Shown: piece after piece, positions 4,052 to 32,707 of the stretch | Numbering within the stretch: position 1 is the stretch's first letter | Layout: every line of letters begins with the position of its first letter | Assembly: GCA_042408215.1 (NCBI GenBank) | Contig: JAYFMW010000026.1 | Location: forward strand, 64,001 to 128,000 | DNA from: Microcoleus sp. | GTDB taxonomy: Bacteria; Cyanobacteriota; Cyanobacteriia; Cyanobacteriales; Microcoleaceae | Reading direction: 5' to 3' | DNA: 64,000 nucleotides | The notes under the pieces: model-generated | Database searches by the model: none | The model's input: only the letters and a program-made list of their open reading frames with translations | What the model was told of the DNA's origin: nothing | Translations under genes and position numbers: made by a program

Positions 4052-5472
4052 TTATTGATATTTTATGGCAATTTCTTGCAATAGTTCCCGATTGACTTTT
4101 CCTTGAGAATTCCGGGGCAATTGTTCAACAAAAACCCAATATTTAGGTCGCTTAAACTTGCTCAATTTATCTTCTATTGCCGCTTGCAAAGCTGTGACAG
4201 TAACTGCGGAATTTGTGGGGACGTAAATCGCTGTTACTACTTGACCCCAATGTTTGTCTAGCAAACCAATGACGGCCACATCGACAACTAAATTAGTCGT
4301 CCTAATGGCGGCTTCGACTTCCGCAGGAAATACGTTTTCTCCGCCTGTGATAATTTTATCACTGTTGCGTCCGACAATGTTTAAGTAGTTATTTTCATCA
4401 AAAAATCCCAAATCGTCTAATTGGAAATATTCGCGATCGCCAAATTTGTCTGGATAATAACCCAAGGCTAAAGATTTAGCATTTACTGCAATATTTCCGA
4501 CTTGATTATAACACAATATCTCGCCTTTTTCACTACGAATTGTTACTTTAGCGTGGGGTAAAATTTGACCAGCACTGTTATTACCCGCGAGGAAATCTTC
4601 GGGTTTGAGTGTGGCAATTTGCGAAGCAGTTTCTGTCATACCGTAAGTTAGGGCTAATTTAATATGATATTTTCTAGCTGTTGCTAAAAGTTCCGGCCAA
4701 GCGGGAGCACCGCCCAAAAGTACGGTATGAAATCGGGAAAGCCAATTAGCTGTATCTGGGTTTTGCAGCAGGCGTTGCAGTTGAGTTGGAACTAGGGAAA
4801 TGAAAAATTCTTCTGGTTCGATATCGGATTTTTGACCAGATTCTAATTCTTTGAATGGCTGAATTGCCAGTTTTCCGCCGATCGTAAATGAACGCATAAA
4901 TTGCATTAAACCGCTGACGTGATATAATGGCAAAACGCAGAATGAGTTGATTTTGTCAACTTGAAAATATTGTTGGAAACCTTGCACTGATGCTGTTAGT
5001 GTTTCCCAAGTGTGGATGGCAAAACGGATTTTTCCCGACGAACCGCCGGTGGGAATCATGATCGATGGTAATTGGTAATTGCTAATTGGTAATTGGGGAT
5101 TGTTTTTCGGTTTTTCGGGTGGAGATGCGAGCGCTCCCATTTCTGTGAGATGTTGCAGTGCATTTTGCCCAATAATTAGGTCTGGTTGGACTAAATCAAA
5201 AACTTGTTGCCATTCTTGTTTTACCCAGTTGGGATTGCAGAGAAAAATCTGGGATTTGGCGTCACAAGCAGCTATGAAACTGGCAATAAATTGTATGGGT
5301 TCTGATTCTGCTAGGAAAATTATTTTCGGTGTTTCCGGTGGTTGATTTTGGGTTAATTGCTGAAATATGCGATCGACTATTTGAGCAATTTCGCGGCTGT
5401 CACAACCGATGAGCCAATTATCGGAGAAGCGAGACGCTATATCTAGAATATTTGCTGTTACATTTTTTGTCA
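4052..5472 (-). CDS. menE: o-succinylbenzoate-CoA ligase
   Basis: TGGSSGK AMP-binding loop, YGMTETASQ, DDLG, GRxxDxIITGGENV. Confidence 0.9.
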
Positions 5473-5518
5473 TAGATGCTTTCACCAAGTTTCTGAGCCC
5501 CCAGGAGTAATCTAAAAT

Positions 5519-6649
5519 CTAAAATCTAAAATCTAAAATTGAATGGTCGTCAAACCAAGAGTCGGTGCCGAAGCCTAATGCTCTAGAATTGGGAAACAAT
5601 TCTGTTGCTAAATTTAAGGCTGCTTGTCTGCCTATTTGGGTTTCAAATACTGATGAAAAAACAGCGTCTATATTGTGGGTTTGACAAAATTTTCGCAGTT
5701 GGGATGGGGAACCGCAGATGGCTGGTTTAATGACAAAGATTCCCCGCCAGCCTTGATCGTAGTATTCTTGGATGCGATCGAGATTGGCGACTGACTCATC
5801 AAGGGCGATCGGAGTTGCATAAACAGCACTCAATTCTAGCATTTCCTCAAATTGTGTGACAGGCAAGGGCTGTTCTAAAAATTCAATTTTTACGGAAAAC
5901 TTGGGAATTTCTAACACATTGTCGCAAGTTTTTAGCCATGTTTCAGCTTGCGAGTAATTGAGTCCGCCGTTGGCGTCTAATCGCAAAAGTGCTTTTTCGC
6001 GATCGCCCAAATCATCCATTGCCTTAATTAACTGCTGAAAAACATTTAATTCTTGTTCAATTGCAGCAACGCCAATTTTCCATTTAAACGTGCGATATCC
6101 CTGTTTCCAAAGCATTTGTAAAGCCGATAAAGCTGTTTCTCCCGCTGGCAATAAACCGCTGTACCGATTATTTTCTTCCTCGTTCCCAGGCTCTGCCCAT
6201 TGGTGACAGCTTAAGACTGAACCCACAATAAATGTCGCTTTTAGGCGAAGTCTAGATCCCCCTAAATCCCCCTTAAGAAGGGGGACTTTGACCCCCCCTG
6301 TCCCCCCCTTAGTAGGGGCGGTGCCCCCGTGCCCGCCCTTGGTTAGGGGGGATCTAGAGTTTGATAGTGCTGATTCGAAGCCAAATTGACAAGCCGGCAA
6401 TTCAGCGGAAATTGAGAAAATCATCTCTTCTGAAATATTAGCTGGTAACGAGTTACAAAAATCTAAAGCTTGCTCAAAACTTTCGGAACCAAACCAACTC
6501 AAAGGGGCAATTTCTCCCCAACCAATTTGACCATTTTCGTCAGTAAGTCTCAGGATAATTCCTAATCGAATCTCCCAGATGCCATGACTTGTGTGCAAGG
6601 GACGCTTAAACTTTCGTTGATAGGTACGAAATTCAAATTGATAAAGCAT
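5519..6649 (-). CDS. menC: o-succinylbenzoate synthase with in-frame repeat insertion
   Basis: GWGEIAPL, FKWKIG, LRLDANGG, EQP, ALDES, VIKP enolase-superfamily motifs. Confidence 0.9.
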   Translation of the reverse strand: MLYQFEFRTYQRKFKRPLHTSHGIWEIRLGIILRLTDENGQIGWGEIAPLSWFGSESFEQALDFCNSLPANISEEMIFSISAELPACQFGFESALSNSRSPLTKGGHGGTAPTKGGTGGVKVPLLKGDLGGSRLRLKATFIVGSVLSCHQWAEPGNEEENNRYSGLLPAGETALSALQMLWKQGYRTFKWKIGVAAIEQELNVFQQLIKAMDDLGDREKALLRLDANGGLNYSQAETWLKTCDNVLEIPKFSVKIEFLEQPLPVTQFEEMLELSAVYATPIALDESVANLDRIQEYYDQGWRGIFVIKPAICGSPSQLRKFCQTHNIDAVFSSVFETQIGRQAALNLATELFPNSRALGFGTDSWFDDHSILDFRF

Positions 6650-6666
6650 TTACTTTTTAATTAATC

Positions 6667-6771
6667 TAAGACTTACGGATAAGTGTCAAAGAAACCGGGT
6701 TTTTCGCCTGGTTAAAGGCTGAGATGCAGTATCTCGGTAAAAAACCCGGTTTCTGATCTGAGTAAGTCCTA
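6667..6771. mobile_element. MITE (AGGACTTAC-type TIR, internal GAAACCGGGTTTTT inverted pair)
   Basis: TAAGACTTACGG...GAGTAAGTCCTA ends; similar elements near 14226-14330, 45780-45890, 48910-49015 and 55600-55702. Confidence 0.65.
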
Positions 6772-7569
6772 TCCATAAAATTGTCTCACGACTGCGACAA
6801 ATTGATCGAGATTTTCAAAATGCACATTGTGACCAGCTTGTGCTATAATCTTGAGACTAGCTGCTGGACATAAACTAGCAATTTCGGCATTTATAGTTTT
6901 AAATTTATCATCATATTCTCCCGCTAGCAAGAGGAGAGGAATTTGATTTTGTGCAAGTTTTTCCCAGAGAGAGGGCTGGTTTCCTGTTCCCATGTTGCGG
7001 AGGGATTTGGCTAATTCGATCGGGTTATTTGCTAAACGGGTTTCGATGAGTCGATCGAAATTAGGAGAGTTTTTTAAAGATTGGAATAAAGGGCGATCGT
7101 ACCAACTTAATAAAAATTCTTTAAAGTTGCTATTTTCCAGTTTTTGTGCTATATGTAAATCGGATTTCATGCGGTGCGATCGCTCTTTTTCGGTCTTCAA
7201 TCCCGGCGAAGCTGACTCCAGCACTACTTTCTCGAATCTGTCAGGAAAATGCAACGTCATGTACAGTGCCAATCGCCCGCCCATTGAATAGCCTAATAAA
7301 AAACATTTGTCTATTTGTAAATCATCTAATAAGTGTATCAATGCTTGGGCTGTATTTGACATATTGTAGCAAGTTTCATCGCCGCTGACTTGGGTTTTTC
7401 CGTGGCCGGGAAGGTCAACTGCTAGACAGCAATAACTTTGAGAAAGTAAGGAAATGATTGGGTCAAAGTCTTGACAATCGCAGGTAAAGCCGTGGAGTAA
7501 TAAAATTATGGGCTGATTTTTGTTGTCAGTTAAGGAATAGTGAAACTGATAATTTTTAATTATGTTCAT
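6769..7569 (-). CDS. menH: SHCHC synthase (alpha/beta hydrolase)
   Basis: LHGF, DLPGHG, GYSMGGR, ESASPG, AGHNVH; men-cluster context. Confidence 0.9.
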   Translation of the reverse strand: MNIIKNYQFHYSLTDNKNQPIILLLHGFTCDCQDFDPIISLLSQSYCCLAVDLPGHGKTQVSGDETCYNMSNTAQALIHLLDDLQIDKCFLLGYSMGGRLALYMTLHFPDRFEKVVLESASPGLKTEKERSHRMKSDLHIAQKLENSNFKEFLLSWYDRPLFQSLKNSPNFDRLIETRLANNPIELAKSLRNMGTGNQPSLWEKLAQNQIPLLLLAGEYDDKFKTINAEIASLCPAASLKIIAQAGHNVHFENLDQFVAVVRQFYG

Positions 7570-7599
7570 CTACAATAATTAGTATAATTGCCCTATTTA

Positions 7600-8007
7600 T
7601 TAAAATCGAATTTCCGCATCGCCAACAGAGATGACTGCTTTAAAACGAGTCAGAAAATCCATACCAAGAAGACCATCTATACGAAGATTTGGCGGTATAT
7701 CGTGGGCAAATACGTCAAAGTTTTCTATGAACTGACCCACGCAATTAAACCAACATACATTAATTACAGGAACATAGATTCTTCCTTGGCCTGTAAAGAT
7801 TTCTTGCCTGCGTAGAGGATTGCGTGAATCGTAACCCAAATCCTCTAATGTTTTAATTGGTAATATTGTGTAGCAGGCTCCCGTATCCACCAGTAAACGC
7901 ACCCGATACTCATTAGCCTCACCATTATTTCCGCCAATGGTTGCTTGCACCGCGAGCAAATTTCGTCCGTGACGCAACAAGGGATAAGCTTTTTGATAAT
8001 TTGACAT
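7600..8007 (-). CDS. Retropepsin-like (clan AA) aspartyl protease
   Basis: LLVDTGA and GLLGMDFL motifs. Confidence 0.85.
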   Translation of the reverse strand: MSNYQKAYPLLRHGRNLLAVQATIGGNNGEANEYRVRLLVDTGACYTILPIKTLEDLGYDSRNPLRRQEIFTGQGRIYVPVINVCWFNCVGQFIENFDVFAHDIPPNLRIDGLLGMDFLTRFKAVISVGDAEIRF

Positions 8008-8012
8008 TTTTG

Positions 8013-8258
8013 TTACAACATAGCTACTAAATTTTCAGGGATGGGCCCGGTGTATTCTATTGCCACCGATTTTCCCTTCCTTGACAAAGCATTATTGTAA
8101 AGCAAATCGCGTTCTGGTGAGTGTGCTAAAACTTCACCTCGAATTACATTCAAATTCTCGTCCAATTCAGTGTAAGCAATTAGCACCCACTCGCTAGGAT
8201 ATAAGTGGATGATTTCTTCTAGGGTTAGGATTTTGTCAATTTCTACTGGCGTACTCAT
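8013..8258 (-). CDS. Small DUF5678-like protein paired with the aspartyl protease
   Basis: YPSEWVLI...GEVLAHS pattern; 5-bp gap to the protease gene; GAGAGG RBS. Confidence 0.65.
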   Translation of the reverse strand: MSTPVEIDKILTLEEIIHLYPSEWVLIAYTELDENLNVIRGEVLAHSPERDLLYNNALSRKGKSVAIEYTGPIPENLVAML

Positions 8259-8402
8259 GATTTGCCTCTCCTTGTTGGCGATTCAACATCAAACTGTTTG
8301 TAGTAAGGACTTTAGTCCTTATTGACTAAAATCTTGCACAAAGGACTAAATTCCTCACTACGAACCGTACCTTTATTTTACCATTATTCCCGATCGCCCG
8401 AT

Positions 8403-9299
8403 TTACAAAACAAACCCCAATCCCAGCAGTACACCGCTAACAAAATGCAGGGTGACTGCAATAAACTTACAGTTGCTGACTTTGGCTGGCTGGTCGTGAT
8501 AGTCTGTGACATGGCGGCAAAGGTCGATCGCAAAAAACACACTACCAAAAATTAACAGCGTCCAAATTGGGAAAAGCCCGATCGCCCAAAATAGCACAGT
8601 CAAAGCATAAACGCTACCGCACAACAACTGCAACACCTGGACACCTTTTTTTGTACCGAGTCGGACAATTGGCGATTTTTTACCCGCAGCCAAATCATCC
8701 GCAACTTGATGAAAGTGGGAACAAAATAAGATAATACTCGTAGTAATTCCCACGATTACCGAAGCCGCAAAATTAGTGGCAGACCAAGTTTGAGTTTGAC
8801 TGTAATAAGCAGCGGCTAAAGCTAGAGGGCCGAAGGTAAAAAAGCAGATAAATTCCCCTAAACCCTGATAGCCCAAACGAAAAGGAGGCCCTTGATAAGT
8901 GTAGCCAAGAGCGCAACACAAAACTACCAGCAAAATTACTGTTGGGTCTTTTTCCCACCAGCTTATGGCACAGATTCCCGACACTCCCAAAGCTAAAAAC
9001 AGATTAGCCAGCCAGAAAATTAAAGATTTATTTCCGGTTAAGTTAACCAAGGAATGTGCTTTGTTTTTATCTATCCCTGTTTCCGAGTCAAATACATCAT
9101 TGGTGAGATTCAGCCATGCTATAATTAAAATGGCTGACATTAAAAATGTCGAAAAGATTGACGAATTAATCGTTTGAGTTTCGGCAAAAGCAATGGCAGT
9201 TCCTACAGAAATAGGAATCACAGCAACGCTGTACATGGGTGGCTTGATTGCCGCTAGCCACAGTTTACTATTTGGAGGTTCAATTAACTTTGTTGTCAT
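8403..9299 (-). CDS. menA: DHNA phytyltransferase (UbiA family)
   Basis: AAIKPPMY, NDVFD...GID, YQGPPFRLGY, DDLAAGK; start taken as MTTKLI. Confidence 0.9.
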   Translation of the reverse strand: MTTKLIEPPNSKLWLAAIKPPMYSVAVIPISVGTAIAFAETQTINSSIFSTFLMSAILIIAWLNLTNDVFDSETGIDKNKAHSLVNLTGNKSLIFWLANLFLALGVSGICAISWWEKDPTVILLVVLCCALGYTYQGPPFRLGYQGLGEFICFFTFGPLALAAAYYSQTQTWSATNFAASVIVGITTSIILFCSHFHQVADDLAAGKKSPIVRLGTKKGVQVLQLLCGSVYALTVLFWAIGLFPIWTLLIFGSVFFAIDLCRHVTDYHDQPAKVSNCKFIAVTLHFVSGVLLGLGFVL

Positions 9300-9682
9300 T
9301 ACACAAACTTGATTCAATTGATAGCAGCGTAGTAATTTTACAATTTTATTGGTAAAGAAGGTGTCATCTGTATCAGGTTGAGTGCGTGCGGGCATCCATT
9401 CAGAGGCTGTGGGGGTACTCAAACTGTGGAAGTAGCCCGTCTGTAAACCTCTGTGGGGGCGATCGACTTTTGCCGAGAGTTAACCGATCGATCTATAAAG
9501 TTTTGTGTCTAAATGTTTCGCTCGATCGCCCCAGAGTCTGTTTTTTTGCCCTAGGGAGTCGAAACAGGGAGGGAAACTCGAAAGGTCATGTTTGGCGATC
9601 GCCCTCCCGTGCTTAGATCGAAATAGGGGTTCTAGCGGGACAAACTCGCACTCTTGCTGACAAATCTGCTATTCTCGCTTTC

Positions 9683-11116
9683 ATGACAGTAATACCGCAC
9701 CGCGCTAATCTTTTGCAAGACCGCAATCAACTGCATCAGTTGCTGTTAGATTGCCAGCAGTCTTTAACTGACAAATATCAAACAAAAATAGTTAGTATTT
9801 CTCAAGAGATTTACCCTCTCGATCCGCTAGCTGTACTGCAAGAGATTTCCGAACCTTGTCAGCGACACTTTTACTTTGAAAAAAGAGACCCCATTGCAGG
9901 CAAAAGTTTTGCGATTGCCGCCCTTGATTCAGCAATCCATCTCACAGTAGCAGGAAGCGATCGATTTGCAGCCGCGCAAAACTTTATTCGTTCAACACTT
10001 GCCAGTACAATTACCATTGGTACGGAACGCTTGCCCTTCAGCGGGCCTCACTTTTTTTGTAGCTTTGCTTTTTTTGATGAGAACATCTGCGACAATTCTT
10101 ACTTTCCTCCCGCTACCATATTTTTACCAAAATGGCAGATTTCTCGACAACAAGATAGCTGCACCATCGTCGCGACGGCCCTTGTAGAAAAAGATATAAA
10201 CGTTAAAAACATCGCTGAAAATATTTGGCAAACTTTTGATAAAATTGCATCTCGCAAATACCATAAATTAACTAATGCTATCAACAGTTCGATATCTTTG
10301 AAACAAATACCCGTGAATGATGCCAGTCAATTTAAAAGATCTGTCAAGTCTGCGTTAGAATTGATCGAGTCTCAATATTTTAGTAAAATTGTTTTATCCC
10401 AAGCAATAAATGTTATTTCTCAAACACCTTTCAGCTTAATAGATTCCTTAAACAACTTGCGCCTCAGCTATCCAGATTGTTATGTATTTTCAACCAGTAA
10501 CGGCAAAGGTAAAAATTTTATTGGCGCTAGTCCAGAACGCTTAATTAGTATTCACAACAATCAGTTATTAACAGATGCTTTAGCTGGTTCAGCACCGAGG
10601 GGAAAAACCGAGGCAGAAGATGCCAATTTAGCGAGAGGTTTATTGCATAGTGAAAAAGATATTCGAGAACATCAAGTTGTGATTGATTTTATAGTCGATC
10701 GCCTGTCTAAACTCGGTATAACTCCCAATTTTTCCCCACTTCCAAGACTGCTACAACTATCAAACATTCAGCATTTGTGGACACCCATAACTGCTCAAAT
10801 TCCCGCAGATATTCATTTATTAAAGATTTTAGCCCAACTGCATCCAACCCCAGCAGTAGCAGGCGTGCCGAGAGATATAGCCCTCGAACAAATTCGTCGC
10901 TGCGAAAGCTGCGATCGCTCTTTGTACGCAGCACCCATCGGCTGGATCGATCGCAGGGGAAACGGCGAATTTGCCGTCGGCATTCGATCGGCATTAATCG
11001 ATGGCGATCGGGCTATACTCTATGCTGGTGCTGGTATTGTGGCCGGTTCAGAACCCGAAAAAGAACTAGCTGAAATTCAGCTCAAATTACAACCACTTTT
11101 AAACGCTTTGGTTTAG
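9683..11116 (+). CDS. menF: Isochorismate synthase
   Basis: GASPERL, ALAGS, EHQVV, LHPTPAVAG, IRSA, YAGAGIV. Confidence 0.92.
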   Translation: MTVIPHRANLLQDRNQLHQLLLDCQQSLTDKYQTKIVSISQEIYPLDPLAVLQEISEPCQRHFYFEKRDPIAGKSFAIAALDSAIHLTVAGSDRFAAAQNFIRSTLASTITIGTERLPFSGPHFFCSFAFFDENICDNSYFPPATIFLPKWQISRQQDSCTIVATALVEKDINVKNIAENIWQTFDKIASRKYHKLTNAINSSISLKQIPVNDASQFKRSVKSALELIESQYFSKIVLSQAINVISQTPFSLIDSLNNLRLSYPDCYVFSTSNGKGKNFIGASPERLISIHNNQLLTDALAGSAPRGKTEAEDANLARGLLHSEKDIREHQVVIDFIVDRLSKLGITPNFSPLPRLLQLSNIQHLWTPITAQIPADIHLLKILAQLHPTPAVAGVPRDIALEQIRRCESCDRSLYAAPIGWIDRRGNGEFAVGIRSALIDGDRAILYAGAGIVAGSEPEKELAEIQLKLQPLLNALV

Positions 11117-11131
11117 CAATATATTAGAAAA

Positions 11132-14100
11132 ATGATTGATTTTCGCAACACAAACACCCTCTGGTCTTCAATATTAGCCGAAACTTTACAGCGTCTGGGA
11201 TTAACTACCGCCGTCATTTCTCCCGGTTCGCGATCGGCACCATTAACAATAGCCTTTGCCCAGAACCACAAAATAGAAACTATTCCGGTTTTAGACGAAC
11301 GTTCAGCCAGCTTTTTTGCATTAGGAATTGCCAAAAAAACCCATTTACCCGTCGCACTAATTTGCACATCTGGAACCGCCGCAGCCAACTTTTATCCTGC
11401 GATCATAGAAGCCAGAGAAAGTCGAATTCCGCTGCTAATATTCACAGCCGATCGACCTCCCGAACTGCGGGATTGCCATGCTGGACAGGCTATCGACCAA
11501 GTAAAAATCTACGGCAACTATCCCAACTGGCAAGCCGAATTAGCCATCCCTTCTGCGTCCATAGGAATGTTAGGCTATTTGCGGCAGACGATCGTGTATG
11601 CTTGGGAGCGATCGCAATTTCCAACACCCGGCCCCGTTCACCTCAACATCCCCTTTCGCGACCCACTTATACCCGTTCCAGACATTGCTGTAGAAGCTTT
11701 AGAAACACAATTTGATATCGAAGATTTCTTTGCAGGATTAGAACCGATTGTTGCAGGAGAAACCTCTACCCCCCCCAGCCCCCCCTTAGCAAGGGGGGGA
11801 GCAGGAAGTCCAATAGAACCAAGCCCCCCCTTGTTAAGGGGGGGAGAAGAAAGTACAATGCAACAATGGCAGAAGTGCAGCAGAGGGATAATTATTGCGG
11901 GCGTTGCACAGCCTCAATTTCCCGAAAAATACTGTAGTGCGATCGCCCAAATCTCCAAATCATTAAACTGGCCAGTTTTAGCAGAAGGACTATCCCCAGT
12001 CAGAAACTACGCCCAACTCAACCCCCATCTAATTTCCACCTACGATTTAATCCTGCGAAACCACGAACTAGCAGATAAACTAACCCCAGAAATCGCCATT
12101 CAAATTGGAGACTTACCCACAAGCAAAGAACTACGAAACTGGTTAGACAAAACCCAACCCAGACGATATATAATCGACCCCAGCCACCACAACTTCGATC
12201 CCCTACAGGGCAAAACAACCCACCTGCGAACCTCCGTAGAGCATCTAGCCACTGCTATTTCCCCTCAAGTCCCCCCCCTGATTAAGGGGGGGTTAGGGGG
12301 GGTTCAAGATCGGGGCAACCACGGGGGGATTGCCCCTACAGACAATCAAACAGAAAACCAGAATTTTGTAGGGGTAGTGCCCCCGTGCCTACCCCTCACC
12401 ACCAATGAGGGCAACCACGGGGGGATTGCCCCTACAGACAATCAAACAGAAAACCAGAATTTTGTAGGGGTAGTGCCCCCGTGCCTACCCCTCACCACCA
12501 ATGAGGGCAACCACGGGGGGATTGCCCCTACAGACAATCAAACAGAAAACCAGAATTTTGTAGGGGTAGTGCCCCCGTGCCTACCCCTCACCACCAATGA
12601 GGGCAACCACGGGGGGATTGCCCCTACAGACAATCAAACAGAAAACCAGAATTTTGTAGGGGTAGTGCCCCCGTGCCTACCCCTCCCCACCAATGAGGGC
12701 AACCACGGGGGGATTGCCCCTACAGACAATCAAACAGAAAACCAGAATTTTGTAGGGGTAGTGCCCCCGTGCCTACCCCTCCCCACCAATGAGGGCAACC
12801 ACGGGGGGATTGCCCCTACAGACAATCAAACAGAAAACCAGAATTTTGTAGGGGTAGTGCCCCCGTGCCTACCCCTCACCACCAATGAGGGCAACCACGG
12901 GGGGATTGCCCCTACAGACAATCAAACAGAAAACCAGAATTTTGTAGGGGTAGTGCCCCCGTGCCTACCCCTCCCCACCAATCAGGGCAACCACGGGGGG
13001 ATTGCCCCTACAGACAATCAAACAGAAAACCAGAATTTTGTAGGGGTAGTGCCCCCGTGCCTACCCCTCCCCACCAATGAGGGCAACCACGGGGGGATTG
13101 CCCCTACAGACAATCAAACAGAAAACCAGAATTTTGTAGGGGTAGTGCCCCCGTGCCTACCCCTCACCACCAATGAGGGCAACCACGGGGGGATTGCCCC
13201 TACAGACAATCAAACAGAAAACCAGAATTTTGTAGGGGTAGTGCCCCCGTGCCTACCCCTCCCCACCAATGAGGGCAACCACGGGGGGATTGCCCCTACA
13301 GACAATCAAACAGAAAACCAGAATTTTGTAGGGGTAGTGCCCCCGTGCCTACCCCTCACCACCAATGAGGGCAACCACGGGGGGATTGCCCCTACAGACA
13401 ATCAAACAGAAAACCAGAATTTTGTAGGGGTAGTGCCCCCGTGCCTACCCCTCCCCACCAATCAGGGCAACCACGGGGGGATTGCCCCTACAGACAATCA
13501 AACAGAAAACCAGAATTTTGTAGGGGTAGTGCCCCCGTGCCTACCCCTCACCTCTCCATCAAAGGAATACCTCCAACTTTGGCACAACACCGAAACCCAA
13601 ATCAGACAAACAATAGACCAAAAAATATCAGCAATTCAAAACATAATTGAACCCAAAGTTTCCTGGCTGCTGTCCCAGATTTTGCCACCAGGAACACCAA
13701 TATTTATTGCTAACAGTATGCCAGTCAGAGATGTAGAGTTTTTCTGGAAGCCGAATCACTTAGAAATAAAACCTTTTTTCAATCGCGGCGCTAACGGCAT
13801 AGACGGCACATTATCAACAGCTATGGGAATAGCTCACCGCAATCAAAGCAGCATCATGTTAACAGGGGATTTAGCACTTTTGCACGACACGAACGGTTTT
13901 TTAATTAAACATAAATTTGTCGGTCATCTGACAATTATTTTAATTAATAACAACGGCGGTGGCATCTTTGAAATGTTGCCCGTTGCCAAATTTGACCCGC
14001 CATTTGAAGAGTTTTTTGCCACGCCGCAGCAGATCAACTTTGCTCAGTTGTGTGCAACTTATGGCGTGGAACACGAGATAATTGACGATTGGGAGCAGTT

Positions 14101-14221
14101 AAAAGAAAAATTAAGTTTTTTGCCAAATAGCGGGATTCGTGTCTTAGAATTGCCAACAAATAGGCGTACAGATGCTAAATGGCGGCAAGATCATCTAGGT
14201 AAATTTGCCAAAGATTTGTAA
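11132..14221 (+). CDS. menD: SEPHCHC synthase with large in-frame repeat insertion
   Basis: SPGSRSAPL, DERSA, CTSGTA, TADRP, NRGANGIDG, GDLALLHD, NNNGGGIF; about 1029 aa because of inserts. Confidence 0.92.
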   Translation: MIDFRNTNTLWSSILAETLQRLGLTTAVISPGSRSAPLTIAFAQNHKIETIPVLDERSASFFALGIAKKTHLPVALICTSGTAAANFYPAIIEARESRIPLLIFTADRPPELRDCHAGQAIDQVKIYGNYPNWQAELAIPSASIGMLGYLRQTIVYAWERSQFPTPGPVHLNIPFRDPLIPVPDIAVEALETQFDIEDFFAGLEPIVAGETSTPPSPPLARGGAGSPIEPSPPLLRGGEESTMQQWQKCSRGIIIAGVAQPQFPEKYCSAIAQISKSLNWPVLAEGLSPVRNYAQLNPHLISTYDLILRNHELADKLTPEIAIQIGDLPTSKELRNWLDKTQPRRYIIDPSHHNFDPLQGKTTHLRTSVEHLATAISPQVPPLIKGGLGGVQDRGNHGGIAPTDNQTENQNFVGVVPPCLPLTTNEGNHGGIAPTDNQTENQNFVGVVPPCLPLTTNEGNHGGIAPTDNQTENQNFVGVVPPCLPLTTNEGNHGGIAPTDNQTENQNFVGVVPPCLPLPTNEGNHGGIAPTDNQTENQNFVGVVPPCLPLPTNEGNHGGIAPTDNQTENQNFVGVVPPCLPLTTNEGNHGGIAPTDNQTENQNFVGVVPPCLPLPTNQGNHGGIAPTDNQTENQNFVGVVPPCLPLPTNEGNHGGIAPTDNQTENQNFVGVVPPCLPLTTNEGNHGGIAPTDNQTENQNFVGVVPPCLPLPTNEGNHGGIAPTDNQTENQNFVGVVPPCLPLTTNEGNHGGIAPTDNQTENQNFVGVVPPCLPLPTNQGNHGGIAPTDNQTENQNFVGVVPPCLPLTSPSKEYLQLWHNTETQIRQTIDQKISAIQNIIEPKVSWLLSQILPPGTPIFIANSMPVRDVEFFWKPNHLEIKPFFNRGANGIDGTLSTAMGIAHRNQSSIMLTGDLALLHDTNGFLIKHKFVGHLTIILINNNGGGIFEMLPVAKFDPPFEEFFATPQQINFAQLCATYGVEHEIIDDWEQLKEKLSFLPNSGIRVLELPTNRRTDAKWRQDHLGKFAKDL
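12313..13551 (+). repeat. 13 tandem 96-bp units, each an inverted pair of REP-like palindromes
   Basis: Unit starts every 96 bp from 12313 to 13465; encodes GNHGGIAPTDNQTENQNFVGVVPPCLPL[T/P]TN[E/Q]. Confidence 0.95.
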
Positions 14222-15297: not shown

Positions 15298-16164
15298 TTA
15301 ATCTCGGATTTCCAGGTTGTACTGGCGGCAGAGGGCGATCAGTTTTTGTTGGAAGCGATCGCGCACACTGTCTGGAGAGACGATCGCGCAATCTTCCCAA
15401 TAGGGGGCAATTTCGCGGAAAAACCAGAAGGTATTGAAAATCGGACGGGTGACTCGTCTAATTGGCGGATCGCCTTCTAAGTCGCTGACTTCCACATCGC
15501 CTTGCTTTCGTCTGTAGTTAAAGGCAAGCCTGCCGAATAAGTGAAATTCTACGGAAATTCGCTCTAGATCCGGCAACCAAGTTCGATCGACCGACATCAC
15601 CGCAGCATCTTCAATGCGATCGAGCAGCAGGGTCCAGTTGTGTTCGAGTCCCGGTACGTCTTGATTTCCGTCAGATTCTTCGCAGCGACACATTAAATAC
15701 TGTCGCTTTTCAATAGGGACAATCCGAGCGTGTAAGACTGTGTAACTCCAAAGGCGATCGGCTGCATCTCGATAGGAAAGGCGAAATGGTTGCTGTCTGT
15801 GGATAAAATTATCGATTTTTTGCCGCCAAGCAGGTAAAGGGTTGCTCAAAAACGCCTCGATTTGGGCCCGGAAGGGGAGAGTTAGTTCGCTGCGCGAGCT
15901 CAACAATTGGGCAATTGCCAGCGCTTCATCAATTTTGCCCGAGTCGAGCAATTGCTGTCGGGCGATGTCTAGGGCTTGGATGCGGGTTTGGGGCCAGTCG
16001 TGGTTGGGGGCGATCGTCAGTTGGCGGCGGGCGATCGCTTCTATCAGTTTGGAAATGTTCGGGCGATCGCCCCACGTCTTCCCGAATTCTTGGGCCAAGG
16101 CTTCCAACTGCGCTTTATCTCGTTCAGAAACAGACAGGGTGATCGATTGACCTTTGCGACTCAT
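15298..16164 (-). CDS. WYL-domain transcriptional regulator of the I-D locus (Sll7009-like)
   Basis: N-terminal RHH-like segment, RQYLMCRC and LDRI WYL motifs; divergent from cas3'. Confidence 0.85.
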   Translation of the reverse strand: MSRKGQSITLSVSERDKAQLEALAQEFGKTWGDRPNISKLIEAIARRQLTIAPNHDWPQTRIQALDIARQQLLDSGKIDEALAIAQLLSSRSELTLPFRAQIEAFLSNPLPAWRQKIDNFIHRQQPFRLSYRDAADRLWSYTVLHARIVPIEKRQYLMCRCEESDGNQDVPGLEHNWTLLLDRIEDAAVMSVDRTWLPDLERISVEFHLFGRLAFNYRRKQGDVEVSDLEGDPPIRRVTRPIFNTFWFFREIAPYWEDCAIVSPDSVRDRFQQKLIALCRQYNLEIRD

Positions 16165-16261
16165 AAATGTACGGACACTTCTTCATTGTACGGGCTTGAT
16201 AATCTCAATTATCGGTGTCAATATGAGGAATATCCACTTTCTACGGACACAGATTCAGCAT

Positions 16262-18442
16262 ATGTCCGATTACCAGATTACCCTCAAATCCGTTTACTCC
16301 TGTCCCGCTGCGGAAATTCCCAAAGGAGTGAAATTACCGGAAAATTGGACGCTTTCTTGGCATCAACTTGAAACTTTAAAGGCAATTCGCGATCCGAATA
16401 TTGATGTCATTTTCAACTCAGCTATTACTAGCGACGGCAAAAGTTTAGCCGCTTTCCTAGAAACATTGCAGACATATTGTTGTGCAGTGGCGCTATATCC
16501 TACTAATGAACTGGCGCGAGATCAGGAGACTCAAATTAAGCGCTATATCGAACAATTCCAGCCCGAACATCAACCCCGCGTTGTGCGACTCAGCGGCTCG
16601 GAATTAGAAATCTATGCAGAAAATGAAAAGCTGAGAAAAGCAGCCGCGATCGCATCTCGCACAGGTCAATCAGAGATTTTATTAACTAACCCTGATATCT
16701 TGCACTATCTCCACCGAGGAGCGTATTTAAGCTCTGAAGATAGCCCCGATAAACTGTGGGGTCGCATCGACAAAGATTTTGACCTGTTCATTTTTGATGA
16801 ATTTCATGTTTTTGCTGCTCCTCAGATTGCCAGCGTCATCAATACCCTGTTATTAATTAGTCATACAAACCGCCGAAAAAAGTTTGTATTTCTGTCAGCA
16901 ACTCCAGACGAGCAATTAATTAGCAGACTAGAAACAGCAGGGTTTCGCTGTCAAACTATCGACCCTTTAAAAGCAGGAAAATATCGGTTTCCCGATCGCC
17001 CTGCGGAAATCGAACAGTTGAAATCAGACTCCTGGCGGCAGATATTGAGGGAAAGTACGCTGACTTTTATTTCCCTAGAACCAACTTCAAAAGCTTCTGA
17101 AACTTGGCTGAAAGACAGCGCAAATCACATCCTGACTCACTTTAAACACAATCCGGGAAGTAAAGGAGCTATTATCCTGAATTCAATTGCTGCCGTCAAG
17201 CGGCTGACACCATTTTTTCGGAAATTGTTCGCGCCTCACGGTTTAGTTGTTGGCGAAAATACTGGGTTGTCGGGAAAAACGGAAAAAGAGCGATCGCTCT
17301 CGTCAGACTTAGTTCTCGGTACTAGCACCATTGATGTCGGGGTAGACTTCAAAATCAATTTGCTGATTTTTGAATCCGCCGATGCGGGTAACTTCATTCA
17401 AAGATTGGGAAGGTTGGGGCGACACGATGGGTGCGATCGCAATGGGGAGTTTATTCAGTTTCAAAATTTCACAGCCATCGCACTCACCCCTAATTTCTTA
17501 GTCGAACGCTTATTTGCAGGCGATACTGCGACTTTAGAGTCTAATGGAATTTACGATCGTCCTTTTTTCTATCAACAAATTCGCGAAAAGTACCGCCAAA
17601 TCAACAATTTTGAGGGATATTATTCGCGGTGGGGTGCGGTGCAGTCAGTTCAAATTTGTTGGGAATTAGGGCACAGGACAATTAAACAGCAGTACGCATC
17701 AAGTCAGAAAGCTTTTCAGGAAGCTGCTCAAAAAGTATTTAAAACTAGCTTGGGGAAAGTGGCCGGTAATATTAAACAGTGGGGCAAAGAGTGGAAAGAG
17801 CGATCGGGAAATAAAACAGGAAATCCGATCGTTGAAGATGCTAGCAGTTTTCGAGGTTCTAGTCCCCTGCAATGCGGCATCTGCGATTTAACCGATTCCC
17901 ATGAGGCAGACAAATTTAAAACTTACGATTTACCAGGAATTTTGAGCAACTTGGAAATCGAACCGATGACGGAATCTGCATTTATGCAAATGTTGAAGGA
18001 GACATCTGAACGCCTTGGGCAACCAATTGCCAAAGGTCGATTTAAACACTGTCTGGCTTTTTTGAAGTTGCGTAGTTATCGGGAGGAAAGACTGAATTGG
18101 AAATTTACTTATTCGGGAAATTTAGAGGAAAACGCTGCTGTTTGGAAAGTTCAGGTGTTGACGGGGATTGAGGTTGTGCAACCTGAGAATTATTGGATCG
18201 GGGAAATCAACAAGCGTTTGAAGAAGCAAGCATTGGTTTGTTATGTGCTGCGTTATCCGGTGGCTGAAGTGCGATCGCGCCTGCGACTGCCGGTGCACTT
18301 TCAGATTTATCCGATTTGCGATCGGTACAGTATCCACGATGGGACTGCACCTTATTCGATCGCCTTTGGGCAGTCGGCGCTGCTTGTGGACACGCTGGCC
18401 CACTGGCTCAAGAGTAAGGGGGATGAAGTATGGATTGCGTAG
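16262..18442 (+). CDS. cas3: Type I-D Cas3' helicase
   Basis: YPTNEL, DEFH, SAT, TIDVGVDF, QRLGRLGRH; no HD domain; Walker A reads TSDGKS. Confidence 0.9.
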   Translation: MSDYQITLKSVYSCPAAEIPKGVKLPENWTLSWHQLETLKAIRDPNIDVIFNSAITSDGKSLAAFLETLQTYCCAVALYPTNELARDQETQIKRYIEQFQPEHQPRVVRLSGSELEIYAENEKLRKAAAIASRTGQSEILLTNPDILHYLHRGAYLSSEDSPDKLWGRIDKDFDLFIFDEFHVFAAPQIASVINTLLLISHTNRRKKFVFLSATPDEQLISRLETAGFRCQTIDPLKAGKYRFPDRPAEIEQLKSDSWRQILRESTLTFISLEPTSKASETWLKDSANHILTHFKHNPGSKGAIILNSIAAVKRLTPFFRKLFAPHGLVVGENTGLSGKTEKERSLSSDLVLGTSTIDVGVDFKINLLIFESADAGNFIQRLGRLGRHDGCDRNGEFIQFQNFTAIALTPNFLVERLFAGDTATLESNGIYDRPFFYQQIREKYRQINNFEGYYSRWGAVQSVQICWELGHRTIKQQYASSQKAFQEAAQKVFKTSLGKVAGNIKQWGKEWKERSGNKTGNPIVEDASSFRGSSPLQCGICDLTDSHEADKFKTYDLPGILSNLEIEPMTESAFMQMLKETSERLGQPIAKGRFKHCLAFLKLRSYREERLNWKFTYSGNLEENAAVWKVQVLTGIEVVQPENYWIGEINKRLKKQALVCYVLRYPVAEVRSRLRLPVHFQIYPICDRYSIHDGTAPYSIAFGQSALLVDTLAHWLKSKGDEVWIA

Positions 18443-18443
18443 A

Positions 18444-18558
18444 ATATCAAGCCCTAATAGGGTTTGGGTTAAGTCAGGTAGGAAGGTAGAGGAACGAACG
18501 CCATTAGGAGCGCAGCTAATGTTTTCAATCCCTAATAGGGGGTTAAGCTATCAATAAA
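18444..18558 (-). CRISPR. Degenerate antisense mini-array (2 repeat-like units, 1 spacer-like unit)
   Basis: Minus strand reads ...CCCTATTAGGGATTGAAAA-(about 40 nt)-...AAACCCTATTAGGGCTTGATAT, versus array repeat end AAACCCTATCAGGGATTGAAAC. Confidence 0.75.
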
Positions 18559-18595
18559 AATTAATAAGCTTTTCTACCTGTCCACACCCTACATC

Positions 18596-18636
18596 AGTAT
18601 ACCAAGGATGACAACTATGTTTAGATCGTTTATACT
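18596..18636. promoter_or_regulatory. Back-to-back sigma70-like promoters
   Basis: Minus strand: TGGTATACT extended -10 (18604-18596). Plus strand: ATGACA-17bp-TATACT (18608-18636). Confidence 0.5.
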
Positions 18637-18844
18637 CAGACAATGGAAAGCTTCGCGGCTCTGTGAGCAACGATCGCGAGTAGGAACACAGATATGTAAT
18701 CGCAGCCCTTCTTGTTCTTTAGACAGAACGGTTTTTAGCGTCACTTTATTTGAGTGGGGGTATAACGCCCCCCTTCTGCTCCTGTCAGCAGTCAGCAGCC
18801 GTGAGTCTTTCCAGTCTGTAAAAACTCAAAAGGAGACATTCACA

Positions 18845-19096
18845 ATGCCAAAGCCAAAACGCTCTGGTGAGGGAGGGCCTTTGCTATTTATTCCCTATTC
18901 CCGGAAACCTTTTTTGGAAAACAAAAAGAAAGTTCGAGGGAGAAATCGCCACCCCTTTGAGTTGCTGGAAAAAGTTCAGAACTTATTAGAAACTGCACTG
19001 GACAGAAATGAGTTTGAGTCAGAGGAGGTCAAAGCAGAAGTCTATGACTTTTTAGTAATCCTCCGAGGCTCTAAAAAGGTATCTCAAAGGCGCTAG
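18845..19096 (+). CDS. Orphan basic 83-aa protein inside the cas locus
   Basis: AAGGAG RBS upstream of ATG; followed by hairpin GCTCTACAGG...CCTGTAGAGC. Confidence 0.6.
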   Translation: MPKPKRSGEGGPLLFIPYSRKPFLENKKKVRGRNRHPFELLEKVQNLLETALDRNEFESEEVKAEVYDFLVILRGSKKVSQRR

Positions 19097-19220
19097 ATAG
19101 TAGCACCTTACGAATTTTCATTAGTTAGGCTCTACAGGAGTAGTGTAACTACATAAGAGCCTGTAGAGCTCTTTTGTCAAAAATCTCTATCAAAGATAAG
19201 TGAGTTCTTTCATAGACTCC

Positions 19221-19363
19221 CAGGGCTGTTTCATTCTCTTGTAGGGGCGGTGCCCCCGTGCCCGCCCTAGCTCTCAAACACATACAAAATGTCGATGAAG
19301 AGGGTCGGCACGGGGGCACGACCCCTACAAAATTATCGTTTTCTTGAGAATGAAATAGCCCTG
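19221..19363. mobile_element. MITE with 18-bp TIRs and 10-bp target duplication
   Basis: CAGGGCTGTTTCATTCTC / GAGAATGAAATAGCCCTG ends; CATAGACTCC at 19211-19220 and 19364-19373; internal REP pair. Confidence 0.88.
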
Positions 19364-19386
19364 CATAGACTCCCTAGAGGCATAAA

Positions 19387-22300
19387 ATGGCTAAAAAACG
19401 TCAAAAACCAGATGAAGAGTATCAACAACTCTCATTATTTGATATCCCAGTTAATTTGAACTCTGAGCGATCGGATGATCCAGATGATGACTGGTTGCAA
19501 GATGAAGAATTAGGGTCAAACTTTCAAACGTCCGATCGCACAATCGAACCTCAAACTCGCGACTTACTAACCCTCAAACTCTTGCGATCAGCCATTCAGA
19601 GTCAAAATCCAGGCGATCGCGTCATGGCAGACTTCGCAGAATATGTCTTGCCAAATCTGCTGCGAGTTGCCATTGGCGTCACAGCCAAAGGCGGCAAATT
19701 TTTTGACGAACTCGATCGCAAACAAGGAAAAGAGAACGTCAGGCGCGATAACGCAGGCGATCAGTCCCTAAATACTCACCTGCTAAATGGATTATTTCCC
19801 GCTAATTTAATTGAACAGCGGTTAGAAAAACTCGATACCACCGTGCGGCGATCCGTAGGAGAAAAAGAACGGCGGTTAGTAATTGCTGGATTTATTCTCC
19901 ACGACTTTGAAAAATTCCCCGATGTCCCCAACGATTGCCGCAAGTTACCACTAGAAAAGCACCGTCAAATTATTGATGAAAAAGTGCGACAGTTAGGACT
20001 AGATAGCTTGATCAATCCCGACGATCCAGATGCTTATCGAGAATACATTGACGATTTGCTCTGCCTTGCTTACAACGCTCAGCGGCGTTGGGATACTAAC
20101 TGGAATTTTTCCGAATTTGGGTTAAATCCAGTGTTGCGCGATCGCACACTCCGCAGTCTTTCAGACTTAACCTGTTTAGCAGATTCCCTAGCATCTATTA
20201 TCAAACATCCCCAAGATGCAGAAAATACCAGACTAAACGAGTTAATCCACAGCCTCAGCGACGGACAATTAAAATTCACTTATCACAGCATCGCTGAAAA
20301 CAGAGGCGTACTTACTAACGTCGTCAATAACGCTTTAATGGAAGTGCATACGGCGCTGAATACCGACGCTTGCACCTACTATGAACCACTGCTTTACCTA
20401 CCAACAGGTGTAATTTACCTAGCACGGCGGGATGCTCCTGCTATTTCAATTGCAGACTTGCCCGAACGGGTAGTTAGCAAGATTAAACAACTCTGCGCCG
20501 GACAATTGCAACGGCGACAAACTGGATTTGGTAGAGATGGTAAAGGCATGAAATATGCCGAGTATTATAACCTGTTTTTTGATCCGTCAGAGTTGATGCT
20601 AGTTGCTGTTGATGCTACTTTACGCATTCTCAAAATAGGAAAAAACTCTGTTGCCAAAAGTCGCAGCGATAATCTGATCAAATTTCAGCGTCAGGATGTT
20701 TTATCTGCCGATTATAAATTCAATTTTGAGGACGATATTCGGATTGACCAAATTGCTGAACTTGGGGACTTAGTGAGTCGCAAGATTTGGGGAGAACAGG
20801 TTAATACCATCGAAACTGCACGCAAGAAAGACAAAAAACTACCCGCCCTAACTCATCTAGATATTGTCGATGAAATTGCTAAGTTTTGGAACCTGTCCGA
20901 CTATCTACCAGCCCTAAGAGAAATTCAACGGATTAATGAAAGCCTCAAAGAACTTAAACTAAAAGGCAATACAGGCGGCGTTCCTTACGAATGGTACTAT
21001 TTAGCAGCAAAGTACCTAGAACATCACCCAGGAATTGAGGATGTGCGGGAAGTTTGCGAACAGGCGATCGCCCACATTTCCCAAATGATTAAACCCATTC
21101 TTTCACAGTACAAATTGCCCGACGGTTGGGACGATTTGCGGTTGTGGGTAACGCGGGTTGTTATGTTACCCGGAAATACACCATTGGACACAGCATCCGC
21201 TGACGTATTTTTAGATGAATTGGAACGCTACCAACTCGCCAAAAAACAGGGTAGAGGAAGACAGTTAATCTGTTCGATTTCCCATTCAGCTTACACGGTG
21301 ACAGAACAAATGGAATCAGCCGTTTTGTTCACCCCTCAAGTTTACACTAACAAACAAATGTTGGGAGGTTCTAACGCCAAACGGAATATTTCTAGTATTG
21401 CAGGTTTGGAAATGATGCTGAGGCAAATTTTAATGAATCAAACTCAAGCTGTGGGCAAAAAATTTGAAGATGGCAAATATCGCTATCTCTATTTTTATCC
21501 CACATATTACTTCACCCCAGAAACAAATAAGTTTCTGCAAAAAGCCTACACTAGCATTGCCCAAACCCGCTTTGATACCAGCATACGCAATCATTTTATC
21601 AGCAAAGATTTGCAAGCCGATTTTGGGCGCGATCGCTACCAAAGCATCGATGCTTTCCTCATAGATGAAAACATCGAACCAGGAAAAGACCGCACCTTCA
21701 AACTTTCCTATCCCGAAGACCAACCTCTAACATTTTACTTCATGGCGCTTCCCCCCGGTAGAGATGCAACAGATACCGAATCTTGGGTAATGCCAGCTTG
21801 GCTAGCTTTTGCTTTCCCGATGATTCTGGATGTCAAAACCGTAGTTTCAGAGTCGCCAATTCCGCCTTTTAACGACGGTGCAGAATTTGAAGAAACCGTA
21901 TTTCTTGACAGTGTACCCCAAGCTTTTAGGGTATTGACCAAGCGCGATCGCTTTCGTCTCGACTATATTTTAGAAGGATGGGAGGAAAACGGCAAATCTT
22001 ATCCAGCACCTTTGAATGTGTTAACCGCTGCTTATGCGATTCACCTTGATGTTAATGCAAAACAAGGGAAGTCCGGTTATGACTCCAACTGGGGAAAATT
22101 AACTGAACTCGCCACTGATTTTGAAACCAGCCCGCTTTATGTGTTTAGCTACCTAAATAAGTGGGTGCGGAAACAGAAAAATGAAACGGCATCAATTCAA
22201 AAGATTAAGCTTTATGCTTATCATTTTTACCCTTGCTTTGACTCCTATGCCCAACTATAATTTCATGATCAGAGGAACGGATCGACTGAGACAACCGCAT

Positions 22301-31200: not shown

Positions 31201-32707
31201 GCAAAAATTGCCGGCCGCAAAATACCTAAAACCCTATCAGGGATTGAAACTTTTTCCTGCGAATTCCTCCTCCCATTTCTTGAGCCGCAAAATACCTAAA
31301 ACCCTATCAGGGATTGAAACGAGAGCTATTCCCGTCACTCATCGCTTCGGCCATCAGCCGCAAAATACCTAAAACCCTATCAGGGATTGAAACCTGCAAA
31401 CTTGCAAGCTGCTTCAAACTTCCAACTTGCCGCAAAATACCTAAAACCCTATCAGGGATTGAAACGTCCTCTACCCCCGTCGTTTCAGTGATTACTGCTG
31501 GGCCGCAAAATACCTAAAACCCTATCAGGGATTGAAACAAACATCCAAGACTTTAATTCCTTATGCGCCGCCCAAGCCGCAAAATACCTAAAACCCTATC
31601 AGGGATTGAAACTACACCCACCGAAACTGAGTATCAAAGATATAAACAGCCGCAAAATACCTAAAACCCTATCAGGGATTGAAACTTAATCAAAATCCGG
31701 CTGTTAGTAGCAGCCGGGAGCCGCAAAATACCTAAAACCCTATCAGGGATTGAAACGTTCCCAGTGCCAAAGATGCAGAAATTTCAACATACGCCGCAAA
31801 ATACCTAAAACCCTATCAGGGATTGAAACCAGGCGCAGAAAGGACTCTAGGTGGTGGATTGACGCCGCAAAATACCTAAAACCCTATCAGGGATTGAAAC
31901 ACCTTTCGGTGGGCGAAATTGGTGCTACCGATGTGCCGCAAAATACCTAAAACCCTATCAGGGATTGAAACATTACAGGACTATTTCTAATTTCACAAGT
32001 AGCAATTGCCGCAAAATACCTAAAACCCTATCAGGGATTGAAACGTAGTTAACTTTTCGATGGATTGGGCAATGAGAGGCGCCGCAAAATACCTAAAACC
32101 CTATCAGGGATTGAAACTTTCTCTCTAAATTGAATTGCTATTTGTGAATTTTTGCGCCGCAAAATACCTAAAACCCTATCAGGGATTGAAACGCCGAACT
32201 CCCTGGCAAGGCTTACGGAGGTGGCACAGCCGCAAAATACCTAAAACCCTATCAGGGATTGAAACATTGCCGGAGCTAAACACGACGCATCAATTCAATT
32301 ATTAAGCCGCAAAATACCTAAAACCCGATCAGGGATTGAAACATTGCCATCGATCCACACGCAGGATTTAATTCTTGCCGCAAAATACCTAAAACCCTAT
32401 CAGGGATTGAAACCGATTAGTTCAAGGTGACACGCAATTAATACTTGAGCCGCAAAATACCTAAAACCCGATCGGGGATTGAAACAGGGATTCACGCTTT
32501 GTTGATAACAACACGACAGCCGCACGCCGCAAAATACCTAAAACCCTATCAGGGATTGAAACAAGCTTTTGCGGTATAGGTGCAATCATATTAAATAATG
32601 GCCGCAAAATACCTAAAACCCTATCAGGGATTGAAACTTGATGGAGTTTTTATCTCTCTAAGTTTTAACTGCCGCAAAATACCTAAAACCCTATCAGGGA
32701 TTGAAAC
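28291..32707 (+). CRISPR. Type I-D CRISPR array, 61 repeats and 60 spacers
   Basis: 37-bp repeat GCCGCAAAATACCTAAAACCCTATCAGGGATTGAAAC with about 73-bp period; counted manually. Confidence 0.97.

Follow-up and report, generated by a model that had tools for sequence, protein, structure and literature searches.

A large multi-copy array of REP sequences is established in menD of this Microcoleus sp. genome. The reading considered probable here is that a selfish REP array was amplified locally and fills a linker of the sole menD, where it is probably expressed as part of the protein, giving a predicted disordered loop on an enzyme that is still active; on this reading the array itself would serve no function. 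The window analysed is the whole stretch of 64 000 nucleotides that contains the gene. A preliminary description of it had proposed a REPIN/BIME-like unit amplified in frame within an enzyme gene, and this proposal held, the gene being intact and single-copy.

Architecture and copy number of the array

The following features of the window are referred to below (position 1 is its first letter):

4052–9422, minus strand: homologues of menA, menH, menC and menE (Pfam; men names read from domains and order)
6312–6338, plus strand: single REP, variant C of the array's family, in frame within menC
9683–11116, plus strand: menF-type chorismate-binding gene (Pfam; menF name read from domains and order)
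11132–14221, plus strand: menD (SEPHCHC synthase), 1029 aa, without internal stop
11765–11847, plus strand: site 1, two in-frame C-run/G-run palindromes in the linker between domains I and II; pLDDT <50 at residues 214–234
12271–12302, plus strand: older C-run/G-run palindrome (PPLIKGGLGG), into or beside which the REP element was inserted
12313–13552, plus strand: array of 13 arm A and 13 arm B REPs, ca. 413 aa, at site 2, the linker between domains II and III
12313–12339, minus strand: first REP arm A, GTAG foot and imperfect GC-rich hairpin, recurring every 96 bp
12340–12367, plus strand: 28-nt linker, resembling a fusion of one element's right flank with the following element's left flank
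12368–12394, plus strand: first REP arm B, GTAG foot and imperfect hairpin, recurring every 96 bp, final copy ending at 13546
12395–12408, plus strand: 14-nt spacer of the B-A doublet, containing both variable positions
19241–19328, no strand assigned: REP doublet of the array's family with longer inverted flanks, outside long ORFs

By TRF, 12.9 tandem 96-bp units (99 % matches, no indels) were found at 12313–13552, a tract of 1.24 kb in which each unit consists of 27 (arm A), 28, 27 (arm B) and 14 nt. This agrees with the 13 tandem 96-bp units described earlier as lying in frame in MenD (12.9 copies, ca. 413 aa, open frame), and the same is true of the one Cys per 32-aa unit and of the restriction of unit differences to two positions, which are 86 (A/C, Thr/Pro) and 95 (G/C, Glu/Gln). 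The 12 junctions carry A-G six times, C-G four times and C-C twice, and the rare allele recurs in an identical three-unit context (units 5–7 and 10–12). Over three units only one of the six frames is free of stops, namely that of menD.

Both 27-nt arms have the foot and the imperfect GC-rich palindrome (20–40 bp) of GTAG-type REPs. Three units fold at −151.7 kcal mol−1 (z −11.2), and none of 100 shuffled sequences was equally stable. In the best fold, arm B pairs with the arm A of the following unit; with inverted REPs, GTAG ends outside and B-spacer-A pairing this structure has the form of a REPIN hairpin. The inverted REP pair of the preliminary description was retained, and its phasing, with the hairpin running from A to B, was corrected. 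The full 96-bp unit occurs in the genome in menD only, the longest match elsewhere not exceeding 43 nt; members of the same REP family do lie near 6313 and 19241, as had been observed. The further palindromes recorded at 11765–11850 and 12268–12303 are present (11779–11799, 11824–11844 and 12271–12302), but belong to a second family of the form C-run/TT..AA/G-run, with 829 copies in the genome.

Copy number was assessed on Logan contigs of four runs (X1, X2, X3 and X20). X1–X3 come from two studies, X2 and X3 being one sample; the stretch is absent from X20. In X1, X2 and X3 alike, contigs match both flanks at ≥99 %, and within the tract they give way to junction alleles of higher depth, each a separate contig at 2–8× flank depth, with all three alleles present in X1. 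Contig depth divided by flank depth gives 11.0 (X1), 6.0 (X2) and 13.3 (X3) junctions as against 12 in the window, values that are good to a factor of two only, because X2 and X3, one sample, disagree twofold, and that may include other organisms in the summed depth. X1 could be the source sample, and X2/X3 carry several substitutions relative to the window. Multi-copy arrays persist in at least two distinguishable strains.

Since the summed junction alleles stand at 6–13× flank depth in near-identical strains, the array is not an assembly stutter. The earlier argument to that effect is upheld by contig depth, though no read spans the tract, and the same non-spanning contigs give no sign, in these strains, of an allele of one or two units. 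Away from the arrays, ligA, topA and cobN (L145, L066 and L148) are split by single-base frameshifts, most likely assembly errors; such frameshifts together with resolved long arrays make the assembly look like a long-read consensus. An assembler that stuttered on a true allele of one or two units would suit these frameshift errors, the lack of a record spanning the whole tract in X1–X3 and the exactly one unit carried by the 98 % identical homologue P0003. It would not account for junction alleles recovered as separate contigs, at 2–8× flank depth each, in X1, X2 and X3 from two studies, and is regarded as extremely unlikely. That the units number exactly 13 is probable.

The MenD enzyme, its linkers and their history

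The menD product scores 465.7 bits against TIGR00173 (cut-off 244.2) and has three ThDP-enzyme Pfam domains, which places it in the MenD family. Profile positions 2–337 are matched before the insert and 339–434 after it. A second intact menD, which the preliminary description had regarded as evidence against its reading if this copy were silent, is absent from the genome searched, the remaining TIGR00173 matches being weak ThDP-enzyme paralogues. The gene starts 15 nt behind menF; menB is intact, as are the men genes nearby. The nearest named relatives are Microcoleus and Tychonema (85–92 % identity). Elsewhere in the window, at 15298–22260 and 28877–32486, CRISPR-like repeat arrays (TRF) follow ORFs that we take to resemble a WYL regulator, cas3' and cas10d.

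None of the 22 columns that are invariant in a 136-sequence alignment has been lost, in line with the earlier remark that conserved motifs are intact on both sides of the array. With the insert excluded, dN/dS was 0.10–0.17 against 10 of 10 relatives tested, an average over a long branch that is silent on the short time since expansion. Close homologues among those listed have 596–756 aa; MenD is therefore ca. 1.7 times the usual length and not, as had been stated, nearly doubled. Its computed mass is 111 kDa.

Alignment to Listeria MenD chains places the array in the variable region that separates domains II and III, and the insert of lesser size (11765–11847) between domains I and II. In an AlphaFold model built on the 136-sequence alignment, 535 residues have pLDDT ≥90, no structure is predicted for residues ca. 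390–805, and the insert is without secondary structure at pLDDT ca. 30–35. The model matches solved MenD structures at TM 0.89–0.91 (normalised by target); it describes one chain, leans on relatives that lack the insert and is silent on oligomer formation. A first model from 30 close sequences (mean pLDDT 43, rmsd 12–16 Å to MenD) was uninformative and was discarded. Disorder-promoting residues make up 72 % of the insert, which contains hardly any basic ones. The insert is predicted to be a disordered loop and the MenD that carries it is likely still a working enzyme; we infer both that activity is retained and that the tract is translated as such a loop.

The main rival is a crippled allele, in which transcription or translation would be impeded by the hairpins, or assembly blocked by the 43-kDa loop; the strain would then get by on little phylloquinone, for which plastoquinone can substitute. 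Such an allele could persist, because loss of menD is viable in Synechocystis, whose menD mutants are described as surviving with plastoquinone in photosystem I (PMC5299476). The very stable predicted RNA structure would fit, as would the length of the frame: a single menD match was obtained in 73 of 79 genomes of the genus, and in no other of the 73 does the frame exceed 778 codons, the next longest. The gene has, however, no stop, frameshift or lost invariant residue, its men neighbours and menB are intact, no terminator-like site lies on the sense strand within the array, aroE carries an equally large array, and multi-copy arrays have persisted in more than one strain. Crippling of the allele is for these reasons held to be improbable.

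The tract might also be removed after transcription or translation, as an intron, by ribosome bypass or as an intein, leaving MenD of normal size. RNA hairpins do bring distant parts together, but no intron or ribozyme of Rfam matched the tract (four sub-threshold hits to a microRNA model were chance hits), and the Rfam and promoter/terminator scans as a whole gave chance-level results. No intein domain was found in Pfam, and the frame is kept across 19 insert lengths in relatives, which would be unneeded if removal took place at the RNA level. Removal is given next to no weight, and the reading of a translated loop is retained.

Site 2 was surveyed in 32 Microcoleus-type loci, of which three, interrupted at this position, were excluded. 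The remaining 29 show 19 lengths, with a palindrome in 28 and the frame kept in 27; the two out-of-frame loci break in C/G runs, where sequencing errors are common. Several assemblies of the genus break at site 2, one of them within a similar unit. Nostocales loci have short linkers only. Among the best 120 of 6800 homologues, site 2 measures 28–163 aa, as against 443 aa here (ca. 2.7 times the longest), so that tolerance of short inserts need not extend to the array. To judge from these comparisons, site 2 is a hypervariable, genus-wide insertion hotspot. Peptides of arm A or B occur in 11 of the same best 120 of 6800 homologues, including the following:

P0070: intact element with both flanks
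P0014: right half
P0015, P0099 and P0112: A-B-A
P0003 and P0069: one unit
P0083: two units

The homologues thus form a series of 0, 0.5, 1, 1.5 and 2 units, and those 96–99 % identical over the C-terminal domain have no unit (P0001, P0002 and P0004–6) or one (P0003). The series 0-1-2-13 is not a proven order, because the short-read homologues with one or two units may be collapsed arrays.

Site 1 is tandemly expanded in other strains (L019, L023, L024 and P0119), up to 143 aa, so the two menD linkers expand independently. In P0215, a MenD of another lineage, a whole RAYT-like HUH/Y domain lies in frame in the domain I–II linker between two copies of a short peptide, and P0233, P0124 and P0247 have inserts in the same two linkers.

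A contingency or tuning locus, which the preliminary description had offered as a possibility, would set the level or activity of MenD by fast and reversible change of copy number, for example in response to light or redox state via the 13 cysteines. Instability is to be expected of near-identical units, contig depth hints at allele ratios that vary from strain to strain, and site 2 varies among homologues that are 96–99 % identical. Against this, the inserted sequence is not conserved, relatives using other palindromes and frames at site 2; most hairpin arrays lie outside genes; the unit steps keep the frame, so that switching of frame by 96-bp steps is impossible; and the only two out-of-frame relatives break at C/G runs, which are error-prone in sequencing. 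With 27 of 29 relatives in frame and a cytoplasmic enzyme as host, the proposal found no positive support and is considered very unlikely. No locus-specific purpose is needed, since the same amplification is seen in 122 arrays outside long ORFs.

For an array without function of its own, a path from insertion through partial duplication to tandem expansion is plausible, its order being deduced by comparison of sequences. A REP element with inverted flanks would have entered a C/G palindrome already present in the linker, probably by the agency of a RAYT transposase belonging to the family whose genes lie between such REPs in relatives. Partial duplication, as suggested by the homologues, would then have yielded A-B-A with the fused 28-nt junction, and with it the 96-bp direct repeat. 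Slippage or unequal recombination, aided by the hairpins, may have expanded this repeat in several rounds; the three interspersed alleles and the recurring three-unit context fit several rounds of duplication, and the same process of tandem-array formation is seen across the genome. Finally, selection would purge arrays from genes, sparing those that have a period divisible by three, an open frame and a site in a permissive linker.

REP family, candidate RAYT and arrays across the genome

In the genome 97 loci together hold 148 copies of the REP family; 41 of these loci lie within ORFs of ≥200 aa, among them valS, cysS, ligA, thrB, rnhA and recJ. Arm A itself has 41 copies (none for a reversed-pattern control) and 8–19 copies in four other genomes of the genus. 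More than one REP was found at 15 of the 97 loci by strict matching, which would miss degenerate partners, and a B...A/C doublet with longer inverted flanks occurs at other loci of the genome. Four of the six possible frames occur among the in-gene REPs of this family; one REP frame has a TAG stop, and the arginine-rich sixth frame is used at none of the 41 in-gene loci.

The preliminary description had suggested a search for a RAYT gene flanked by this REP. The search succeeded in relatives but not in this genome. A RAYT-type family (86–100 % identity) was found in seven of 61 genomes of the genus, with menD-type REPs flanking all seven loci, as against none of the six loci of the next-nearest RAYT group. 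The copies of arm A that flank the RAYT gene in L126 are identical to that of the array, and in the relative G046 a 183-aa HUH/Y protein gene has an exact arm A and an arm B variant on both sides. Arms A and B are absent from the 30 best-scoring RAYT loci of the genus; the REP-flanked match was one of 20 weaker hits that had been picked by hand, and a degenerate pair was seen at a second. Against NF047646 (cut-off 80) the candidate cognate RAYT reaches a sub-threshold score of 63.8. The menD repeat is, on this comparison of loci, a GTAG REP for which the genus offers a candidate cognate RAYT.

In the genome itself, rated 99.98 % complete, no cognate RAYT was found, the best tblastn match of the L126 protein reaching 34 % over 101 aa; the latest expansions therefore probably took place without it. 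RAYT candidates among the matches listed comprised 20 to Y1_Tnp and 10 to NF047646. L057, L054 and L052 (RAYT-like/IS200-like, with flanking repeats) were considered as cognate RAYT and rejected, as they carry other repeat families. Each of these HUH transposase genes (L057/L085, L054/L100 and L052) has tandem arrays of its own repeat family on either side. The GAAACCGGGTTTC-type family has no obvious GTAG foot, yet forms the most arrays of any family (at least 44 of 137).

For the amplification step only, RAYT-primed rolling-circle replication is an alternative to slippage or recombination. The architecture is that of the BIME basic module, for which a rolling-circle model has been put forward (PMC2817692), and the three RAYT-like/IS200-like genes inspected all sit between arrays of their own repeats. 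The failure to find a cognate RAYT, the poor fit of three mixed alleles to one burst from one template, and the equal frequency with which arrays are formed by C/G palindromes lacking a GTAG foot make this route rather doubtful, and slippage or recombination is kept as the preferred step.

Across the genome 135 tandem hairpin arrays of five repeat families were counted, that of menD ranking sixth by copies. The hairpin filter had been loosened to include the menD unit; the recJ array fails it and is not included in the in-ORF figures. Only 13 of the 135, that of menD among them, lie in long ORFs (reduced from 15 after two ordinary protein-domain repeats had been dropped), though such ORFs cover 65 % of the genome. 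A period divisible by three was not used as evidence, because it is partly built into the in-ORF definition. Among the other 122 arrays a crude search for gene-breaking cases gave five candidates and no clearly broken housekeeping gene. The following in-frame arrays were found in other genes:

L061:4591–6693 (G000:C17:488590–490692), minus strand: aroE, 700 aa, 8.3 × 138-bp C/G-palindrome units in frame
G000:C27:30571–32865, minus strand: ORF L060, 764 aa, 12.7 × 129-bp palindrome units, ca. 546 aa
L061:32–2149: recJ, 8 × 24 bp, menD REP family
L063: polA, 4.8 × 69 bp
L066: topA, 5.6 × 33 bp
L065: rsmE, 5.1 × 42 bp
L062: cobN, 9.9 × 45 bp

The host domain of the L060 array presumably resembles a CHAT protease domain. 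The aroE, polA, topA and rsmE genes are each single-copy. The aroE linker measures 428 aa in the assembly, as against 23–105 aa in 28 of 29 loci of relatives, one lying at a contig edge. An autotroph should need aroE, which, if essential, is a better test of tolerance than menD. Hairpin amplification is therefore a general process in this genome, its products removed from the bulk of the coding DNA and persisting in linkers. A bolder reading, in which REP arrays of this lineage act as a genome-wide accordion that gives active core enzymes (MenD, AroE and others) disordered domains of 400–550 residues and tunes their dosage or behaviour by rapid copy-number shifts between strains, is put forward as a tentative and unlikely idea. 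On this view, cyanobacterial housekeeping proteins may often contain giant repeat-encoded domains that have gone unnoticed, since short-read assemblies break or collapse at such sites.

Comparison with known systems

No report of giant in-frame REP arrays in Microcoleus or in menD was found in the literature searched, a body that did not extend to supplements and key subscription papers. Elhai et al. reportedly described in 2008, as SDR, small cyanobacterial palindromic repeats, some of which insert in frame, and that work may already cover these repeat families. The menD array is an extreme case of a known phenomenon, its new point being size, and does not indicate a new molecular mechanism.

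Intragenic GTAG REPs, single, paired or clustered, are described as lying in frame in housekeeping genes, where they are thought to be neutral in linkers and loops (Di Nocera et al. 2013, PMC3733652). The inserts given in that survey have mostly 20–30 aa and its clusters 43–82 aa, whereas the menD array has ca. 413 aa and two further arrays of this genome ca. 380 and 546 aa. Rickettsia palindromic elements offer a second parallel, as selfish palindromes translated as inserts in metabolic enzymes; as the review describes them they are single insertions of ca. 150 bp, and its account reports no tandem amplification, the likeness being one of description (PMC10969869).

In its architecture the menD array is like BIME-2 or modular BIMEs, in which inverted REPs alternate with two alternating linkers, head to tail (PMC2817692, PMC3116915). 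Tandem REPIN clusters and BIMEs are reported to vary in length between strains, with REPs flanking the RAYT gene (PMC2817692, PMC3116915). They are described in these sources as extragenic; the menD array is coding and in frame, and is for this reason called BIME-like rather than a BIME. In P. fluorescens SBW25 the largest ordered REPIN cluster reported there has four REPINs and more than 700 bp, and the largest REP arrays have 12 REPs (PMC3116915, PMC2817692), as against 26 REPs and 1.24 kb in menD.

TnpA-REP/RAYT subclass 2.4 is characterised as abundant in cyanobacteria, with long GTAG REPs and in-frame REP insertions (PMC6006769). The L126 protein has the H-F-H, WQ and YILNNP motifs of the subclass 2.4 consensus, and is likened to that subclass by motifs only (PMC6006769). 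The in-frame REPs reported for the subclass lie in the transposase gene itself (PMC6006769), whereas here they lie in a metabolic enzyme of a genome in which the transposase was not found.

Relative to these systems, the known size of translated REP inserts is pushed from tens of residues to ca. 400, and one array is tied to a candidate transposase family and to graded alleles (0 to 13 units) at one site. Such alleles are under-counted, because short-read assemblies break at the menD linker. Two questions become testable in menD: whether BIME-like amplification proceeds by RAYT rolling circle or by slippage and recombination where the cognate RAYT is missing, and how much disorder encoded by selfish DNA an oligomeric enzyme tolerates.
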